Positions 44,784-64,000 of a stretch of DNA of 64,000 nucleotides are shown one piece after another. The translations under genes were made by a program, and so were the position numbers. The stretch comes from a virus (lineage: Duplodnaviria > Heunggongvirae > Uroviricota > Caudoviricetes), in the IMG/VR virus record IMGVR_UViG_3300029846_000001; one strand, given 5' to 3'. Numbering within the stretch: position 1 is the first letter of the stretch; every line of letters begins with the position of its first letter. Under the pieces are notes generated by a model that did not search any database, had not been told where the DNA came from, and was given only the letters and a program-made list of their open reading frames with translations.

Positions 44784-45774
44784 ACTGTTTTTCTTTTACC
44801 TTGTTATTGATTATCAAATCTGCCACATCATCTCCGTCTCCTACATTTTCAACATTTTGAAGATAGTCCGATACTTTTATCCTTGACTTCATCATCATCC
44901 CATCTATCTTTTTACTCCATGTCTCAAATGCTTGTCCTTTGTCCGGAAAAGCTACAGTCTTTCTATCTTTTAAAACATCTATCACTTCCGGCCTTAGATT
45001 CTGCAACCCACCGGTAGCTACAAATAACTCATCTGGTTTATTCACAGCGCATATAATAGCCGTCTTTTCTGATTCCACCAGATTAACCACCTTATCCGGA
45101 TACTGGCTTAGAAGATGCTCTCCGAACAGGCATTGCCTAAACAAGAAGTCTCTTGCATGCAACGAGTGATAAAACATAACATGAGGCCGCTCATTGTCAC
45201 CGTCTTTTTCCTTCACTCTTTTTACATCAATCTCATTCCCCTGGCTGTCGGTCTTTATATAAAAGTCCATGATCTTGCCGGTTCTACATACAAAATCTTT
45301 GTCTATCTGCCAGAATATACAACATCCTTTCCATCCCCATAAGTCCATTGTTCCTACATGATACCTCCTGAATACATCAGACACCCTTTCTTTTCCCCAT
45401 AGAGATGATAAAAATCTAAATACAGTGTTTCTATCGTCTGGAACTACAGTCCTCTCAAACTCGCTAAAAGGTATGTAATTTACAACGTCAGGATTTACAG
45501 GAGGGCGATAAGCTCTTATACACTTGTTTCCTGAAATCCAAAGATCTTTGTCACCTACATCCTTACCAGTAGGTCGTTTATCGTAACCGCAAGTCCGTTC
45601 ATGATCGCATCTTCCGAACTCGTTGCCAACAACCTGACCTGTTGCCACATCAATATAAGGAGTGAGGCACCGGCTTTTTCCGCAAGCCGGGCAGGTCAGC
45701 TTCAGTCGGCTCCTTCCGGGCCTGCGGTCAAGTTGAAACCGAGGTACGTTTTCGTATCTTCTGAAATCAAGCAT
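44761..45774 (-). CDS. putative DNA primase (zinc ribbon + TOPRIM-like domain), 337 aa
   Basis: CPACGKSRCLTP...CDHERTCGY zinc ribbon; TOPRIM-like Glu (LVESEKTAIICAV) and D-x-G (AFPDKGQAFE); located next to the helicase. Confidence 0.55.
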   Translation of the reverse strand: MLDFRRYENVPRFQLDRRPGRSRLKLTCPACGKSRCLTPYIDVATGQVVGNEFGRCDHERTCGYDKRPTGKDVGDKDLWISGNKCIRAYRPPVNPDVVNYIPFSEFERTVVPDDRNTVFRFLSSLWGKERVSDVFRRYHVGTMDLWGWKGCCIFWQIDKDFVCRTGKIMDFYIKTDSQGNEIDVKRVKEKDGDNERPHVMFYHSLHARDFLFRQCLFGEHLLSQYPDKVVNLVESEKTAIICAVNKPDELFVATGGLQNLRPEVIDVLKDRKTVAFPDKGQAFETWSKKIDGMMMKSRIKVSDYLQNVENVGDGDDVADLIINNKVKEKQYEPGRLY

Positions 45775-57329: not shown

Positions 57330-58139
57330 TTAAATACTTAACTCTTCAATGGTCAAGCCTTTTTCTTTTGCCCACTTTAGCATCGCGCATAATTCTGTTT
57401 CTGACTTATATTTCGGATCACGCCACGCCCATCCGAATTTATCCAGGACATGATGATATAATTCGTCGGCCTTTGCCGTGTAAATGTCTTTGAATAAATG
57501 CTCCGAACCTTCCGGTATAAGCATCTCTGTTGTTGCAAAATCGGAATACGATAAACATCCGTAAGCATATTCTGTTATTTCACTCCATGCTTCTCCGGCT
57601 TTAAATCCAAATTCTTTTACAAAAGCCAAAGTTAGATACATATTTAATAATATTGTTACATCATATCCGGAATCCGACTTTCTTTCTATTATTTCCTTTT
57701 CAAATTCCTTTAAATCTTCAGGTCCTAAAAAGATGTATCCTGATACCGACCGGTAATTAGTCTCCGCATACTTCTTGCATTTATCATCATTGACAATCTT
57801 ACTAATGTTAGATAACATCTTTTGCCTCCATTCATCACAAAACTCTACCTCTACGTTCATCCAATCAGTACCATAATTATATTCTTTCGGATATCCGACC
57901 GATGTTACCTTTATACTATTCACGCCATATCCGTAAAGGCGTTCACTTACCTCATTCGCCCATTCCTGTACAAAAGGAATAAACTTATTGTAATAAGAAT
58001 CAAAATCAAAATCCGATTCCTCCTCATATTCTGGCATCTCTTCATAATCCTGTTCAAAGAAATGACGAGGATCTGCTATTGTTTCGTAGAAACTTACGTT
58101 AATGAAACAAAACTCGTTGGTTGTCGTTTTTAATATCAT
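57330..58139 (-). CDS. hypothetical protein, 269 aa
   Basis: ORF tiled in block. Confidence 0.55.
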   Translation of the reverse strand: MILKTTTNEFCFINVSFYETIADPRHFFEQDYEEMPEYEEESDFDFDSYYNKFIPFVQEWANEVSERLYGYGVNSIKVTSVGYPKEYNYGTDWMNVEVEFCDEWRQKMLSNISKIVNDDKCKKYAETNYRSVSGYIFLGPEDLKEFEKEIIERKSDSGYDVTILLNMYLTLAFVKEFGFKAGEAWSEITEYAYGCLSYSDFATTEMLIPEGSEHLFKDIYTAKADELYHHVLDKFGWAWRDPKYKSETELCAMLKWAKEKGLTIEELSI

Positions 58140-58390
58140 AACTTTTTGTATTTACGTACATTTTTCTTGCCATAGAATCTACACATGGCACGAATCTGAC
58201 TATAAAATACTTTTGTCCTCCTGGCCTCAAAGTATTTAAACATTTCTTCATTCTTTGTTTCCCAAACGTAATCCGTTTGGGAACTCATGCGATCTTTCTC
58301 CTTGCGTGAATAATGGTAATATGATACCACAACACGTTTCATACCATTCTTTACAGGTACGATATTTACGTCTATACTATTCTCTGTCAT
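58136..58390 (-). CDS. hypothetical protein, 84 aa
   Basis: ORF tiled in block. Confidence 0.4.
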   Translation of the reverse strand: MTENSIDVNIVPVKNGMKRVVVSYYHYSRKEKDRMSSQTDYVWETKNEEMFKYFEARRTKVFYSQIRAMCRFYGKKNVRKYKKL

Positions 58391-58509
58391 ATTATTATTG
58401 TTTTATGCATTATACAAATACAAAGAGCGCATACCTTCACAGGCCGGCGCTCCTTTCAATAAAAATGAAAAAACTAATATTACATAAACATATTGTTTTC
58501 TACTCTTTA

Positions 58510-58743
58510 TTACAATACTTTTGTTCCGCAATTATTATATCTTCCGTACTCTTTTTTCGTATCATTCAAGATTTCAAAAACCATCTTCTTGTGATCTTCG
58601 TTTGGTAACCTATCCTTAACAGCCGATATTACGCCCGCTATAGACGTGAATCCTGAATCTGTTATTGAACACAGCAACACACCTCTGTTGGCGCCGGTGC
58701 TTATTGCTGACGCCTTTATAATATCATTTTTATATATTCTCAT
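58510..58743 (-). CDS. hypothetical protein, 77 aa
   Basis: ORF tiled in block. Confidence 0.4.
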   Translation of the reverse strand: MRIYKNDIIKASAISTGANRGVLLCSITDSGFTSIAGVISAVKDRLPNEDHKKMVFEILNDTKKEYGRYNNCGTKVL

Positions 58744-58764
58744 AACTCTTTTGTTTTATTGTTT

Positions 58765-58857
58765 GTGAGATGCCCAGAATCGAACCAGGACCGGCACATA
58801 CATACCGGCACGCCGCGCCATCCCTCTATGATACACAAATAGACATGCCTATTCTCA
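58765..58857 (-). tRNA. tRNA-like element A (canonical T-arm; long, possibly type II or intron-containing; cloverleaf not verified)
   Basis: Minus-strand reading gives ...cctgg-TTCGATT-ctggg-catctca-c with a 5' partner tgagaat 5 bp from the inner end; lies in a 170-bp noncoding gap. Confidence 0.3.
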
Positions 58858-58917
58858 CGAACCGACATGCCAAAACCCAAAACTTAATTTGATGAATAAA
58901 ATAGATTAACAAAAATA

Positions 58918-59232
58918 CTATTCTAACTCTTTTATAATATCTTTCACAATATTCAGCCTTACCTCCTTCGTTTCTGGACTAATACAACCAAACCACCCAT
59001 AAAACGTTCTTGTTTCCTCTGGTTCTGTGGCCATACTTATCTTCTCTTCCAATTCCGGGAAATATATTCTCACCATTTCGTCTGAACGAAACTCATAGAT
59101 ATTTTTATGTGTTTTGAAATACATAAACACTACATTTCTTAACGCAACACATATGTATTCCCCATCCTCTAACCTATCAATCATCTCATATACCTTTTTC
59201 CATATGAATAATCGCTCTTCTTTTGTAAACAT
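58918..59232 (-). CDS. hypothetical protein, 104 aa
   Basis: ORF tiled in block. Confidence 0.45.
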   Translation of the reverse strand: MFTKEERLFIWKKVYEMIDRLEDGEYICVALRNVVFMYFKTHKNIYEFRSDEMVRIYFPELEEKISMATEPEETRTFYGWFGCISPETKEVRLNIVKDIIKELE

Positions 59233-59240
59233 ATTCTTCT

Positions 59241-59588
59241 TTATTTTTGTGGTATTATTTGACTGTACGCAGACTTTTCCATGTACACAATACTATGCTC
59301 CTGTCCAAGTATTTTCTTTGCTGCTTCTTTCTTTATCGCGCAATATCTCCCTGTACGATACGGATTCTTTTGATCTGATCCATCCTCAACTTCGATAATA
59401 AAACAACCTCCGTCATCTATTATCTTTTTGCAATTGTCACATATTTCTCCCGTGCATATATGATGCGGCGCCTGCCCTTTGATGTTATTCCCTAATAAAG
59501 CAATCCCCATCTCTTCACCGCATACTATGCATAGTTCTATGGATGGATTCAACCCATGCTCTGGATGCAATACAATACCGTCTTTCAT
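59241..59588 (-). CDS. hypothetical zinc-binding protein, 115 aa
   Basis: CIVCGEE...HHICTGEICDNCKK Cys/His clusters. Confidence 0.45.
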   Translation of the reverse strand: MKDGIVLHPEHGLNPSIELCIVCGEEMGIALLGNNIKGQAPHHICTGEICDNCKKIIDDGGCFIIEVEDGSDQKNPYRTGRYCAIKKEAAKKILGQEHSIVYMEKSAYSQIIPQK

Positions 59589-59989
59589 TTTCTATCCTCC
59601 TTTATTAATTCTATTATAAACTTTTTATCTTGTTCCCACAATGGCAGCCCTTCTTTTACTGTGTATGCCACTGTTTCCCTCTCTCCTATTAATCGCACGG
59701 CAATCTCTCTTGCTTTCAAGTCATCCTCCTCATGCGATTTGTTTATTAAATCATAGGCACATGATTCCACCTTTTGCCTTTCGATTATTATCGAACCCAT
59801 TAACTCGCTTATATGCGATCCTAAAAACGATAAGACATTAATAGCTTTCCCAATATCATTTGAAATAGCACTTGCTAAATACATCTTATCCATATACTCC
59901 GGCAAAGCCTCGTATGCCGTTTCTATGTTTTTATACTGATTTTCGTTTACCTCCCTTTTAATCAGTTCTTCAAATTCTTCTTTTAACAT
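59585..59989 (-). CDS. hypothetical protein, about 135 aa (start trimmed to the internal Met MLKEEFEEL)
   Basis: The ORF-track N-terminal 49 codons read through the tRNA-like element B and are unlikely to be coding. Confidence 0.5.
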   Translation of the reverse strand: MLKEEFEELIKREVNENQYKNIETAYEALPEYMDKMYLASAISNDIGKAINVLSFLGSHISELMGSIIIERQKVESCAYDLINKSHEEDDLKAREIAVRLIGERETVAYTVKEGLPLWEQDKKFIIELIKEDRK

Positions 59990-60012
59990 GTTCTTCCCTA
60001 TTTTAATGTTGT

Positions 60013-60079
60013 GTGAGATCGCCGGAATCGAACCGACTTGCTGCACCATGAATCCCATAAAGCAAGTGCTCCGATCTTC
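60013..60079 (-). tRNA. tRNA-like element B (canonical T-arm gtcgg-TTCGATT-ccggc, acceptor-like pairing gaagatc/gatctca; short D-arm, non-canonical)
   Basis: Minus-strand T-arm plus 3' acceptor strand with a 5-bp complementary 5' strand; total about 67 nt; not foldable into a standard cloverleaf by eye. Confidence 0.3.
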
Positions 60080-60325
60080 GCAGACGGGAGCACTCTGTCT
60101 AAAGCATAAGAAAATTAATGAAGAAATTTTTCTCACTTACGCCATAGCATCTAAAATAGCTATCAGCACTATTTCTATGACAAACATAATAGAAAATATC
60201 TTAAATGCCTTTTTCATATCGCTATCTCCTCCTTTTTATTTTTTTTTAGTTCCACAATAAACTGTTCCGGCTCTGCTCCGACCTACGTTCCACCTACAAC
60301 CGCAGGCCTTAGCCCAAGGCGCCGC

Positions 60326-60586
60326 CTACTCCCCCTCTATGGCAGCCTGTTCGTACCTACAAAGCCAGTCTCCATCTACACAACTAACACTACGCGATAA
60401 TAAACATTTATCCTTATAACAATCATTAAAAATACACCCCTCACAACTGTAATCCTTAACTTCTTCACAGCTAACTACCTTAGCATATACTATACCATCA
60501 CCGTCTTCTATTCCTTTTACCCCAAAAATAGAACCTTCTTCCTCCTTACTCAAATCTAAGTCAGGCGCAAAATCATATACGGGCAT
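60326..60586 (-). CDS. hypothetical Cys-rich protein, 86 aa
   Basis: CEEVKDYSCEGCIFNDCYKDKCLLSRSVSCVDGDWLC. Confidence 0.45.
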   Translation of the reverse strand: MPVYDFAPDLDLSKEEEGSIFGVKGIEDGDGIVYAKVVSCEEVKDYSCEGCIFNDCYKDKCLLSRSVSCVDGDWLCRYEQAAIEGE

Positions 60587-60685
60587 GTTGGTTATGTTTT
60601 AATTGTTATACATTCCGATTACTACTAATCTATAGAATATAGTTTTCAACTCTCAACCTATTGAATTTTGTAGAATAAACTCACA

Positions 60686-61200
60686 TTATGCTGTTTTAAA
60701 GCACTGTAAGTCTTAATTTTGTAGGAAAACCCTACATAATGCTGTTTTAAAACGCTGATCTGTTGAATTTTGTGGGAAGGGACTATAGAACGCTGTTTTA
60801 AAACGCTGATAGTCTTAATCTTGTTGAATAGTCTTAATTTTGTTGAGCTGATAGTCTTAATTTTGTTGAGAAGGGACTATAGAACGCTGTTTTAAAACGC
60901 TGATAGTCTTAATCTTGTTGAATAGTCTTAATTTTGTTGAGAGGAAGTGCCCTATTTTGTTGAGAAGGGACTATAGAACGCTGTTTTAAAACGCTGATCT
61001 GTTGAATTTTGGGGGAAGGGACTATAGAACGCTGTTTTAAAACGCTGATAGTCTTAATCTTGTTGAATAGTCTTAATTTTGTTGAGAGGAAGTGCCCTAT
61101 TTTGTTGAGAAGGGACTATAGAACGCTGTTTTAAAACGCTGATAGTCTTAATTTTGTTGAGAGGAAGTGCCCTATTTTGTTGAGAGGAAGTGCCCTCCCT
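60686..61200. repeat. complex iteron array: about 7 copies of aagggactatagaacgctgttttaaaacgctgat, about 9 of agtcttaat(c/t)ttgttga(a/g) and 4 of aggaagtgccctattttgttgag (candidate replication origin or regulator-binding array)
   Basis: Seen directly; the core gttttaaaac is a perfect 10-bp palindrome; sits in a 780-bp noncoding gap inside the minus-strand early block. Confidence 0.85.
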
Positions 61201-61365
61201 CTCCCCAACCCCGGCTGATCCTCCGACTTTCCGCATAGAACCTGCGCTCTGGAGCCTCACTACAGGCATACGGAGAACGCTACTGAGCTATACTATGGCA
61301 TGGGATATGGGGTGTTTGGAGATAATATCATTCCATAGAGAAAATAGAGACCTTCAGCCCACGCC

Positions 61366-61551
61366 CTACCGTCTGCTTCTCCTATCAAGATAGATATTCA
61401 AGCCTATAATCAAAGCCAATAAGGAAAAGCAAAAGACCATTACAATATTATACTGATCCGGTCCGTACTCCAACATAGAACGAATACCAACCGACAGAAA
61501 ATAAAAGTCAGCTACTAATAAAAACCACCACATAAAATAAAAAAAATACAA
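61366..61551 (-). CDS. small membrane protein, 61 aa
   Basis: Two hydrophobic helices; ORF just above the length cutoff. Confidence 0.3.
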   Translation of the reverse strand: MYFFYFMWWFLLVADFYFLSVGIRSMLEYGPDQYNIVMVFCFSLLALIIGLNIYLDRRSRR

Positions 61552-61904
61552 TAAGTATGTCCGAAAATACGGGTATTATAAAACCTAACTAATTGATAAT
61601 CAAGCATACCTCATTTTTAAAAAAAATACAATAAGCCTAATTTTCAATCCATAGAGACGAAAAAGGCGGCATCCGACGCCCTATTTTGGGTCAGAAAACC
61701 GCCTAAAGTTTCGTTTTAGACCAATTTTAACGGCATGATATAGACAAAATACCGGCATTATATCCAAACTATCCTATTTTAGTTTCGTTTTAGACCAATA
61801 TAGCTCACATCCGCCGTTCACTCTCAGAATATCTTACCCTTAAATTGAAAGGATAGGATACGAAAATAGGGCTGCTCCGATATTCGGAACAACCCTACTC
61901 CTGT

Positions 61905-62111
61905 TTAAATACTGTTTATGTTTTCTTTCACGTATGTTCGTGATGTATGGACTTTGCGTTTGCATTTGTCCTTTCCTGTATCGGCATGATACGCTTCTTT
62001 GAGATCACGATACAACATAAATTCACGATACGCTCTTTTCCGCTTTTCTTTAGCTTCTTTCCTGGACAGACCGCGGACGTCTACCATATGAGATTTAAAT
62101 TTCCTTTCCAT
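61905..62111 (-). CDS. small basic protein, 68 aa
   Basis: Lys/Arg-rich (SRKEAKEKRKRAYREF). Confidence 0.35.
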   Translation of the reverse strand: MERKFKSHMVDVRGLSRKEAKEKRKRAYREFMLYRDLKEAYHADTGKDKCKRKVHTSRTYVKENINSI

Positions 62112-62130
62112 TTTCTTTATGCTTTAATTA

Positions 62131-62304
62131 TGATTAACTCCAGCGGTTAAGAGCTTCGATATAGAAACCCTCCGCCTCTTTATACTCACTTTCGCTCAAT
62201 GTTTCCACCGTCTCGATATAGTTACGCAATGTTATTTTTACGCAACTGTTTTTAGATTTATTGAACGCTTCAATTAAAGCGTTGATCATTGCTTTCTTTT
62301 CCAT
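62131..62304 (-). CDS. small hypothetical protein, about 57 aa (MEKKAMINALIEAFNKSKNSCVKITLRNYIETVETLSESEYKEAEGFYIEALNRWS)
   Basis: Hand-translated; below the ORF-track cutoff. Confidence 0.3.
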
Positions 62305-62320
62305 GCTATTATATTATTTA

Positions 62321-62384
62321 GAGGTTGCTCCGGAATCGAACCGGACGCGCATTCCTATCCTATAGAGATTTTATGCTACAACCA
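62321..62384 (-). tRNA. tRNA-like element C (perfect T-arm tccgg-TTCGATT-ccgga plus acceptor-like gcaacct; the 5' half cannot be placed, so a fragment or intron-containing gene)
   Basis: The minus-strand T-arm is a perfect 5-bp stem with a canonical T-loop; the nearest complementary 5' strand (tggttgt) is only 63 nt away, too close for a full tRNA; lies in a 570-bp noncoding region. Confidence 0.25.
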
Positions 62385-62881
62385 ACAGCCCGTAATTAGT
62401 ACGTAGTTCTTGCGTACAGGCTCGTACTATGTTGTTATTATATTTTCCGTCTGCTACACAACTTAGCCACAAATAAAGGCGATTGTGTCCTTGCGTTTTG
62501 ATACGGCACGTCCCTACATGGTAGGCTACATGCTTGTACCCTGTAATTTAATCTACAGCCTTGTTCTATTTTTCGTGTAAGCAAGTAAGACACGTTTCGA
62601 TCTGGAGATAAACCTCGTACAACGGCATGTTTTCCAAACTGTAATCACATACCTAACATAAACCATACCTATTCGGATAGTCCATGCAGTAATACCAGCC
62701 CTTTAATTGCCAACGGCAAGGGCAACGGTATATCTATCTCCAATATGTAAAATAACTCTCTATTTTGTCAGCTTCAGTCTAAAGCATACGCGGGACGTGC
62801 ACCCACTGACAACGGCGTACAGACGCGTTTAACGGTACGCGTCAAACCTTTGGAGAGCTTAACGGCGCTCTCCGTGCCTTG

Positions 62882-63421
62882 TTACTGCTGGTTGCTTTCA
62901 TGTGCGAGGTATTCACTTACACACTTTGCCACAGTGCGAATAGAATAAGATTTGATCTTAACAGCCACATAAGTAGATTTGTACTCGTCGGTTTCTTTTA
63001 CCAACCATTTAGTACTTTTTTTATTCTCCAATGATTCGGCAGTAGTAAAACCAAATGCTTTATATTCGCTACCGTAAACCACATTCTCAGCGCACCAATC
63101 AGCCGTTTTAGCTTCAATTCCTTTTTCTTTGTCCGCATTGGTATCCTTATATACTTTAGAGTATAAAGCAAATTTAACAAAGGTATTATCAACTTTCGGT
63201 AACATTTGGCTACACACGGCTACCAGGCTTTTTTTATCCTTGGCGAGGGCTGCAACCTTTACGGCGTATTCTGCCGGTATTTCCAAAGCCTTGCAAATAG
63301 CCTTTAGATCAGCTCCATTAGCAAATAGAGCGTTGTACAGTTTAACAGCACCTACCAAATTTGCAGCATTTTCTTTGATAACGGCATTCTGTAGTTTGTT
63401 TACATTTTTTTTCGTAATCAT
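62882..63421 (-). CDS. hypothetical protein, about 180 aa (start trimmed to MITKKNV)
   Basis: ORF; Ala/Lys-rich. Confidence 0.5.
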   Translation of the reverse strand: MITKKNVNKLQNAVIKENAANLVGAVKLYNALFANGADLKAICKALEIPAEYAVKVAALAKDKKSLVAVCSQMLPKVDNTFVKFALYSKVYKDTNADKEKGIEAKTADWCAENVVYGSEYKAFGFTTAESLENKKSTKWLVKETDEYKSTYVAVKIKSYSIRTVAKCVSEYLAHESNQQ

Positions 63422-63479
63422 ATCCCAATATATTTTAATTGTTAAACAAATGATATTCAAATTAATGACCCACAACGCA

Positions 63480-63830
63480 GGCAATTACAGATACATATAT
63501 AGTTAGCCCAACGGGTACACTATATAGGTTCACTATGTTAACTCGTAATCTCTCTCGATCACGACGCAAATATACGACAGTTATCAATACTACAAATATA
63601 TATGCTATCTTTTTTTTGTTAATTTGTATTAATTTCGATTATATTATCTGATTATCAGCAAGTTATAAAACGAACGAGAGCAGTGTTATACGCGTACATT
63701 AATATGTAGGATATATGCTTATTTAAGTGGCTTATAATCAATATGTTATAATAACACATTGATTATCAATAATTTAAATAAGTGGTTGATAATCAGAGAG
63801 TTTATATATTTGAGATAAAAACGCGTTTCC
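63480..63830. promoter_or_regulatory. AT-rich control region with repeated TGATTATCA / TGATAATCA motifs (4 copies, both orientations)
   Basis: Motifs at about 63646, 63760 and 63790 plus a degenerate copy at 63730; upstream of the first minus-strand gene. Confidence 0.3.
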
Positions 63831-63874
63831 GGTTTTCCAGCGAAGGGGGTGTGGGGAAGAAAACGCGTTTCGGG
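63827..63874. promoter_or_regulatory. two copies of the palindrome AAAACGCGTTTC spaced about 32 bp apart, in a locally G-rich stretch
   Basis: aaaacgcgtttcc at 63827-63839 and gaaaacgcgtttcggg at 63859-63874. Confidence 0.3.
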
Positions 63875-63900
63875 GGCGGGAGGTTCGTGATAGGTACCCC

Positions 63901-64000
63901 CTCTCTCCCATCACATAAACATCTTTCATATCCCTCATCACATAAACCTCTTTCTCATATCTCTCCCATCACATAAACATCTTTCATATCCCTCATCACA
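63901..64000. repeat. tandem direct repeats, about 58-60 bp period (ctctcccatcacataaacatctttcatatccctcatcacataaacctctttctcatat), running off the window edge
   Basis: At least 1.7 units visible; each unit is itself two diverged roughly 29-bp sub-repeats. Confidence 0.8.

Follow-up and report, generated by a model that had tools for sequence, protein, structure and literature searches.

Phage and plasmid replication origins, as in lambda, P1 and the lactococcal phages, are usually recognised by direct repeats together with a dyad in a noncoding gap of the replication module. Transcription-primed phage origins include the T7 primary origin, which consists of tandem promoters and an AT-rich stretch, and T4 oriF/oriG. 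Promoters of the Bacteroidota sigma-A type carry a -7 box, TAnnTTTG, and a -33 TTTG. Epsilon crAss-like phages, which account for an estimated 13–18% of crAss-like reads in human gut viromes, encode no DNA polymerase of their own and carry a minimal replication set (PMC7886860), which means that they must have an origin able to draw on host functions. We analysed a 64,000-nt stretch of DNA (the window) from a gut phage for which GenBank has a single close match, the Epsilon crAss-like phage csAssE-Sib (OR575929.1, 151,256 bp, human gut; ~89% identity). The window holds ~540 bp of repeated DNA in which every copy runs in the same direction, and this array is not mentioned in the genome literature on Epsilon crAss-like phages that we searched. 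The array is probably a docking site for replication start or early-gene control, and sequence alone cannot say which.

The locus shares with iteron origins (lambda ori, P1 oriR, R6K, lactococcal phage ori) a set of same-direction repeats that are unique in the genome and lie, with a dyad, in a noncoding gap of the replication block and in an AT-rich neighbourhood. By contrast, its unit is a 51-bp composite rather than a 17–22-bp iteron; there is no adjacent initiator gene, adjoining AT-rich segment or DnaA box; and copy number, even unit sequence, shifts between close relatives.

Tandem Repeats Finder (TRF) returned periods of 51, 94, 145 and 239 for positions 60661–61196. Three repeat classes had been noticed here in a preliminary description, and all three are present far beyond chance, with none of 100 shuffles reaching the observed count for any of them. 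The 17-mer GCTGTTTTAAAACGCTG, which is the core of a 35-mer put at about seven copies, occurs seven times with at most three mismatches (positions 60690–61141; shuffle expectation 0.22). For the 19-mer ATAGTCTTAATTTTGTTGA, previously put at about nine copies, we counted eight (0.10 expected by shuffling) and three further degenerate copies at 60707, 60758 and 60997; for the 23-mer GAGGAAGTGCCCTATTTTGTTGA, put at four, there are three full copies (0 expected) and one truncated copy at 61184–61196. No copy of the 17-, 19- or 23-mer motif occurs elsewhere in the 64-kb window, and the two main motifs are absent elsewhere in the 151-kb csAssE-Sib genome. The classes are, however, not independent interleaved families. 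They are one composite 51-bp unit, of which csAssE-Sib has just three plain copies at the homologous site (locus L001, 7158–7311), and the 19- and 23-mers are recent internal duplications nested in that ancestral unit. The array and its two parts are:

60661–61196, + strand: the whole tandem array, defined by TRF periods, motif counts against shuffles and comparison with relatives
60661–60811, + strand: the three leftmost units, which keep the plain ancestral 51-nt form (TRF period 51, 3.0 copies; unit-by-unit listing)
60805–61196, + strand: the expanded right part, with units lengthened by internal duplication of the 19-mer (ATAGTCTTAATYTTGTTGA) and the 23-mer

The left three units have diverged from one another, and their layout is that of the entire csAssE-Sib array. 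In the right part, the 23-mer copies the right array boundary (GAGGAAGTGCCCT...), and the copies closest to the C-rich tract at that boundary are the most alike. The array (32–41% GC, with 54–57% in the flanking segment) fills most of a noncoding gap at 60587–61365, whose 779 bp agree with the 780 bp given earlier; ORFs of 41, 67 and 71 aa inside the gap were ruled out as genes by non-triplet indels in relatives. A CRISPR array was rejected because the intervening sequence is itself repeated with a period of 51 nt, leaving no unique spacers.

We built a logo of the unit from 53 distinct 51-nt units of relatives. The unit comprises three blocks, one of 17 bp that contains the GTTTTAAAAC palindrome, one of 13 bp that is T/G-rich and one of 9 bp. 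In the logo, CTACAnAAT is followed directly by GCTGTTTTAAA(A/G)C(G/A)CTG, giving 26 nt that include the GTTTTAAAAC palindrome, and the T/G block reads T(T/G)AATTTTGT(T)GG; the 13-bp block can also be written TnAATTTTGTTGG. The window's 19-mer is this T/G block plus its left spacer. All three blocks are near-invariant across the 53 distinct units while the spacers (positions 18–23 and 37–42) vary, which argues for purifying selection rather than simple homogenisation. In the window, the two larger blocks are placed as follows:

60741–60757, + strand: Block A (GCTGTTTTAAAACGCTG), the 10-bp palindrome GTTTTAAAAC between two direct GCTG
60690, 60792, 60886, 60980, 61031 and 61125, + strand: other copies of Block A, with positions (nearly) invariant in the 53 distinct units
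60851–60869, + strand: Block B (T[T/G]AATTTTGTTGG or ..GA), within the 19-mer, from motif counts and the logo
60809, 60828, 60903, 60922, 61048, 61067 and 61142, + strand: other copies of Block B, with degenerate copies at 60707, 60758 and 60997

Six Block B copies contain TAnnTTTG on the + strand (60714, 60835, 60858, 60929, 61074 and 61149). Across relatives, the first T of this box is present in only 55% of units; 45% carry G there and read GAATTTTG. We found no 10.2-bp harmonic within the 51-bp unit, and intrinsic curvature by 10-bp phasing inside the unit was rejected for that reason.

We next compared the locus among relatives. An exact-motif scan of IMG/VR gave 47 loci; ~44 are homologous and share both flanks with the window, and 51-nt spacing dominates among them. 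At least 80 further loci were gathered via a neighbouring protein, for 63 distinct complete arrays in all. Every one of these 63 keeps at least two units between the same flanks, at a flank-to-flank distance of 130–583 bp (median 248), and the array of the window is the longest. Variation in repeat copy number between isolates had been proposed as a check: both array length and copy number do vary among relatives, and copy number and unit type differ between otherwise near-identical genomes. The leftmost units are stable across contigs, the copies beside the right-hand pyrimidine tract are the most uniform, and other lineages have made their own independent internal duplications, usually of the 21-nt GTTGAATTTTGTTGGAAGGAA. 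The extra copies look like slippage products beside the purine/pyrimidine tract. Within the region, conservation is lowest in the array (72–85%, against 90–97% in the flanks). Judged from these comparisons, the array is a long-standing element of the phage group, with a core under selection and a fast-changing copy number. A scan of 185,579 species genomes for the array unit gave a single match, a 3.9-kb contig (L252, NZ_DXLG01000138.1) binned in a 'Veillonella sp.' MAG, probably by mistake rather than as a pointer to the host; these genomes gave no sign of an episomal or integrated state. Separately, segments 59600–60000 and 62100–62300 are present in only ~12–14 of 25–42 aligned relatives, as gene-sized presence/absence cassettes, one on each side of the array.

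In csAssE-Sib, a plus-strand structural block occupies 17.4–110.8 kb, and a 57.7-kb minus-strand replication/early block wraps the record ends; the array lies ~18 kb into the latter. It sits in the one part of the replication/early gene block that is rich in noncoding DNA: ~2.3 kb within 60–64 kb is noncoding, and the 30 kb left of the array is tightly gene-packed. A terminator precedes the array, and a leftward gene string of ~30 kb follows it. The primase and helicases had been described as nearby, but in the window the primase and the DnaB-like helicase are 15–18 kb from the array. Its immediate surroundings are:

60326–60586, − strand: the first gene downstream of the array, encoding an acidic, Cys-rich protein of 86 aa that belongs to no known family
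60587–60660, − strand: a 74-nt leader from the array to this first leftward gene, without a sense-strand TAnnTTTG
61193–61212, + strand: the pyrimidine tract CCCTCCCTCTCCCCAACCCC, directly adjoining the array and varying in length among relatives
61213–61365, no strand assigned: a conserved noncoding spacer from the tract to the membrane-protein gene, ~90–95% identical in relatives and with 1-nt indels
61366–61551, − strand: a small ORF, transcribed toward the array, whose 61-aa product has two hydrophobic helices and ends in a basic tail
61538–61635, no strand assigned: an AT-rich stretch (24–25% GC) with two TAAAAAAAATACAATAAG copies, at 61538 and 61618
61663–61682, − strand: a terminator-like hairpin and then a T run, which would end a transcription unit entering from the right

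On the gene (−) strand, the pyrimidine tract reads GGGG-N7-GGGGG-N3-GGG-N1-GGG, a G-quadruplex-type motif, and its length steps among relatives are not multiples of three. In the 190 nt right of the array, both strands fold worse than shuffles (z = +1.6), and 34 sequences contain 0 compensatory pairs. Rfam covariance models gave no match at E ≤ 1 on either strand of 58000–64000, and the window contains no tRNAs. The 61-aa ORF could encode a toxin, a holin-like protein or an exclusion protein. A hairpin is also found at the equivalent place in L056. C-rich segments to the left and right of the array were considered as direct repeats of a mobile element and rejected, since their alignment score equals that of shuffles. 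The 86-aa gene diverges faster than the surrounding DNA (72–93% amino acid identity). Host-type promoter boxes (TAnnTTTG) occur in the sense direction at 63574/63600, 60188 and 58917, and there is none between the terminator and the 86-aa gene. As a side observation, the fourth-best promoter-matrix match of the window (TCTATTTTTGGGGTAAAAGG) lies at 60523–60530 on the − strand, 56 nt inside the 86-aa ORF, and suggests an internal promoter or a mis-set start codon. The sense-strand third-codon-position AT skew of csAssE-Sib is ~−0.17 in the late genes, −0.06 upstream of the array (replication/nucleotide genes) and +0.04 in the small-gene block downstream. This skew steps at the array, so that the array separates gene classes, and the three classes may be different expression classes.

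A loose AT-rich DNA pattern scan, the matches of which were mostly chance, yet recovered a sister clade with repeats at the same locus. The 16-kb GenBank fragment MT836733.1 belongs to this clade and encodes a homologue of the conserved 179-aa neighbour, at 32% identity. When turned to match the window, the fragment has the same layout: an operon end that includes a basic protein of 68 aa (weakly similar), a hairpin, the AAAATAYACAATAAG motif in two copies, a gene for a small membrane protein with two helices, a C-rich tract and, as its tandem array, seven CCTTGATTTR units. Eight more sister-clade members in IMG/VR have CCTTGATTTA, CCTTGGTTTC, CCATGGTTT or ~20-nt T/G-rich units there, and one member (L239) has a short degenerate array. 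The sister-clade repeats (9–21 bp, T/G-rich, with periods of 9–10 bp and 19–21 bp) always adjoin a C-rich tract, the equivalent of the tract in the window. Their core, TTGATTT or TTGGTTT, is similar to TTGAATTTT of Block B; the palindrome block is absent from the sister-clade arrays, and the TAnnTTTG box is absent from their units. The counterpart of the 61-aa ORF has 63 aa with the same build and position, is 94–100% identical within the clade and is preceded, just upstream, by both TAAAAAAAATACAATAAG copies. Repeat type does not co-vary with the 68-aa protein, the membrane protein or the protein of the next gene in the sister clade. Indeed, the repeat unit differs between genomes with identical neighbouring proteins, which is odd for a strictly sequence-specific initiator.

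A second noncoding repeat region lies at 63590–64000, upstream of the 179-aa gene, and runs off the window; in csAssE-Sib it corresponds to ~1578–2225 of L050. It consists, in order, of an AT-rich stretch, a G-rich block (63836–63880), a C-rich tract and a tandem 27–31-nt array (CTCCCATCACATAAACATCTTTCATAT). This second array, at ~63.9 kb, is 2.7 kb from the first in a mirror arrangement and is present in 41 of 43 relatives, with 2–12.5 copies (58–375 bp) and one end fixed against the tract. Assemblies break there too, and numerous ~2.75-kb contigs are the segment between the first array and the second repeat region. The 2.7-kb module contains the small membrane-protein gene, the small basic protein, the terminator and AT-rich palindromes, and the array and its partner mark the only noncoding-rich control region of the replication block. 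The two mirror-placed hypervariable arrays might bracket this control module and act jointly as a strain-variable switch (a contingency locus) for the strength or timing of the early/replication programme and the origin, or as incompatibility determinants between co-infecting relatives, although we regard this idea as a long shot. To our knowledge, no such switch made of two bracketing arrays has been described in abundant gut crAss-like phages.

The array would most likely serve as a docking platform for multiple copies of one or two DNA-binding proteins. The preliminary description had read it as origin iterons or a dense operator array. The part of that reading that finds support is a protein-binding cis-element, as the locus is kept in 63 arrays and in the sister clade, and the blocks are kept while the spacers vary; the origin claim is neither confirmed nor refuted. 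Our best single guess, to which we give a probability of roughly 0.3, is that the array is a protein-assembly site marking the replication origin region. A dimer would sit on the GTTTTAAAAC palindrome, and a second factor would bind the T/G block. Opening would be helped by local transcription and by the AT-rich segment that lies 300 bp to the right. The phage's own DnaB-like helicase, its primase and its sliding clamp would next bring in the polymerase of the host, as Epsilon crAss-like phages encode none. Copies beyond the basic two or three units would arise by slippage beside the purine/pyrimidine tract and would be tolerated or merely tune function. Consistent with an origin, the direct repeats have 7–11 copies per block at this locus only, there are AT-rich segments at 61500–61650 and 63600–63800, and the array-like repeats of the sister clade share position, C-rich tract, membrane-protein gene and duplicated AT-rich motif. 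Iterons measure 17–22 bp and are spaced at multiples of the helical turn; here the main period is 51 bp, and the sub-repeats are of 19, 21 and 23 bp. Several observations count against an origin. The 51-bp unit lacks internal 10-bp phasing; the T/G block looks promoter-like; there are no DnaA boxes near the array; and no AT-rich unwinding element was found directly beside it, the nearest 24–25% GC stretch being ~300 bp off, beyond the small ORF. Ten neighbours and the 439-aa 'replication factor' were searched for a Rep-, O- or DnaA-like initiator, and none was found. Pfam, PHROG and NCBIfam assign no function to the neighbours, which match no initiator, partition or DNA-binding family; the conserved 179-aa neighbour has no sequence match in the PDB and a predicted structure too poor to use (pLDDT 41). 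GC skew had been suggested as a check on the origin. Across the whole csAssE-Sib genome, cumulative skew turns only at the gene-strand switches (17 and 110 kb), and the array shows no turn; since the skew tracks gene strand, it cannot place the origin anywhere. The third-codon-position skews do change at the array, in line with gene class, so they fit a transcription-unit boundary more closely than a switch in fork direction.

We rate regulatory readings almost as highly as the origin reading. A phage or host regulator might bind the palindromes and T/G blocks and set the level or timing of transcription into the 86-aa gene and the ~30 kb behind it. The array lies at a transcription-unit boundary, with the hairpin at 61663–61682 on one side and the next gene 74 nt past the array on the other, and codon-position-3 composition changes class there; a 10-bp palindrome is typical of a dimeric-regulator site; and a small basic protein of 68 aa, with a weak sister-clade counterpart, is encoded just upstream. 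Against such an operator, no sense-strand TAnnTTTG promoter lies from the terminator to the 86-aa gene, an array length of 130–583 bp would keep altering promoter geometry, repeat type varies independently of the 68-aa protein and of other neighbours, and the palindrome block is missing in the sister clade. The box-bearing T/G blocks could instead make each unit a host-type promoter firing rightward (+), with a palindromic operator, a -7 box (TAATTTTG) and an initiation region, for an antisense or primer RNA. This RNA would cross the C-rich tract, run antisense to the membrane-protein gene and stop at the hairpin at 61663–61682, which could stop transcription both ways; it could silence the membrane-protein gene in the manner of type I toxin-antitoxin systems, or prime replication in the AT-rich segment in the manner of T7 and T4. 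Late genes of csAssE-Sib carry TAnnTTTG 22–28 nt before their start codons, with a subclass TAYCTTTGTKRAAAAA, and Block B has TAATTTTG and then TTGGAAAA, like these late promoters; when 128,000 positions are scored with a late-promoter matrix, five Block B copies rank among the top 19, each of them on the + strand, where the array has six exact -7 boxes. However, every copy goes back to one or two ancestral blocks, so the matrix match amounts to one or two events and not six. Moreover, the GAATTTTG form makes up 45% of units, some arrays (L072, L074) lack the canonical box, sister-clade units lack it altogether, and unlike Bacteroidota sigma-A promoters the boxes have no -33 TTTG at the right spacing (19–21 nt upstream) and are oriented against the flanking genes, with no gene in that direction. 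Both clades keep the small hydrophobic ORF at the same position and with the same build; the antisense RNA that a type I toxin-antitoxin pair would also need is predicted from the promoter-like boxes; downstream on the + strand there is no conserved ORF or structured RNA, and neither RNA structure nor covariation. The likeness to T7 and T4 origins lies in repeated promoter-like boxes aimed at an AT-rich segment a few hundred bp off, but the promoter activity of the array is only predicted, its boxes are imperfect in nearly half of units, and a gene stands between them and the AT-rich segment. Long intergenic RNAs from the early region are abundant in another crAss-like phage, phi14:2 (10.1101/2020.03.07.982082), but we rejected the analogy because those noncoding regions hold no comparable array. 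Taken together, tandem promoters are an unlikely explanation.

That the tract stalls replication and adjacent sequence is re-duplicated, yielding a largely neutral minisatellite of repeats with no role, would account for the different copy numbers and unit types of near-identical genomes, for the newest and most uniform copies adjoining the tract, for the second hypervariable array that also adjoins a C/G-rich tract, mirrored, 2.7 kb off, and for the independence of repeat type from neighbouring proteins. We nevertheless think it improbable that the array is neutral, since none of the 63 arrays has lost the core, old and diverged units keep the three blocks while their spacers drift, and a degenerate array persists at the sister-clade locus, as in L239. 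A packaging start site or genome end, where the repeats would bind the small terminase or lie beside a T7-like terminal redundancy, is very unlikely. Direct repeats are frequent at pac and cosB sites, and ~19 of 44 IMG/VR contigs and all three ENA/Logan contigs looked up end in or at the array. However, these ends are scattered within units, as expected of assembly breaks in repeats, and were rejected as physical termini; many ~150-kb contigs run through the array, the second array breaks assemblies likewise, and the terminase genes are ~21 kb from the array in csAssE-Sib. The F plasmid sopC and parC-type centromeres, to which a small partition protein binds, are likewise built of tandem repeats tens of bp long that each contain a palindromic core or short inverted repeat, and the sister-clade arrays, with 7–15 copies of a ~10-bp unit, look like parC/tubC arrays. 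By contrast with sopC, parC and tubC, no partition NTPase or recognisable centromere-binding protein is encoded nearby (ParA, ParM, TubZ and ParB-like/centromere-binding genes were all absent among the array neighbours), and the scan of 185,579 species genomes, with its one stray MAG contig, gave no evidence of plasmid life.

The array region offers a concrete fragment for assays of origin activity, protein binding and transcription starts. This array and its partner break short-read assemblies, a practical concern for assembling these phages, and because their copy number and unit type vary among near-identical genomes, they could serve as strain markers.

We made several further observations in the control region. 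A 577-bp gap at 62305–62881 (44% GC) has no ATG-started ORF of at least 40 aa; csAssE-Sib annotates a 95-aa gene in the matching stretch, and the gap could be what is left of a gene, or an RNA that has escaped annotation. Two copies of AGTTTCGTTTTAGACCAAT, at 61707–61725 and 61781–61799, occupy the spacer that follows the 68-aa gene. Four + strand copies of CATAGA(A/G)(A/C), at 61234, 61334, 61474 and 61650, lie within 420 nt right of the array and resemble the CTACAGAAT / CTATAGAAC block of the units. The palindrome TTGATWATCAA has 11 matches with at most one mismatch, against 4.5 expected, and clusters in the control region (61593–61603, 63759–63769 and 63786–63796), with other sites at 44807 and 51187. 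In relatives, it lies inside a 27–28-nt repeat of 2–2.6 copies upstream of the 179-aa gene, and it may be an operator.
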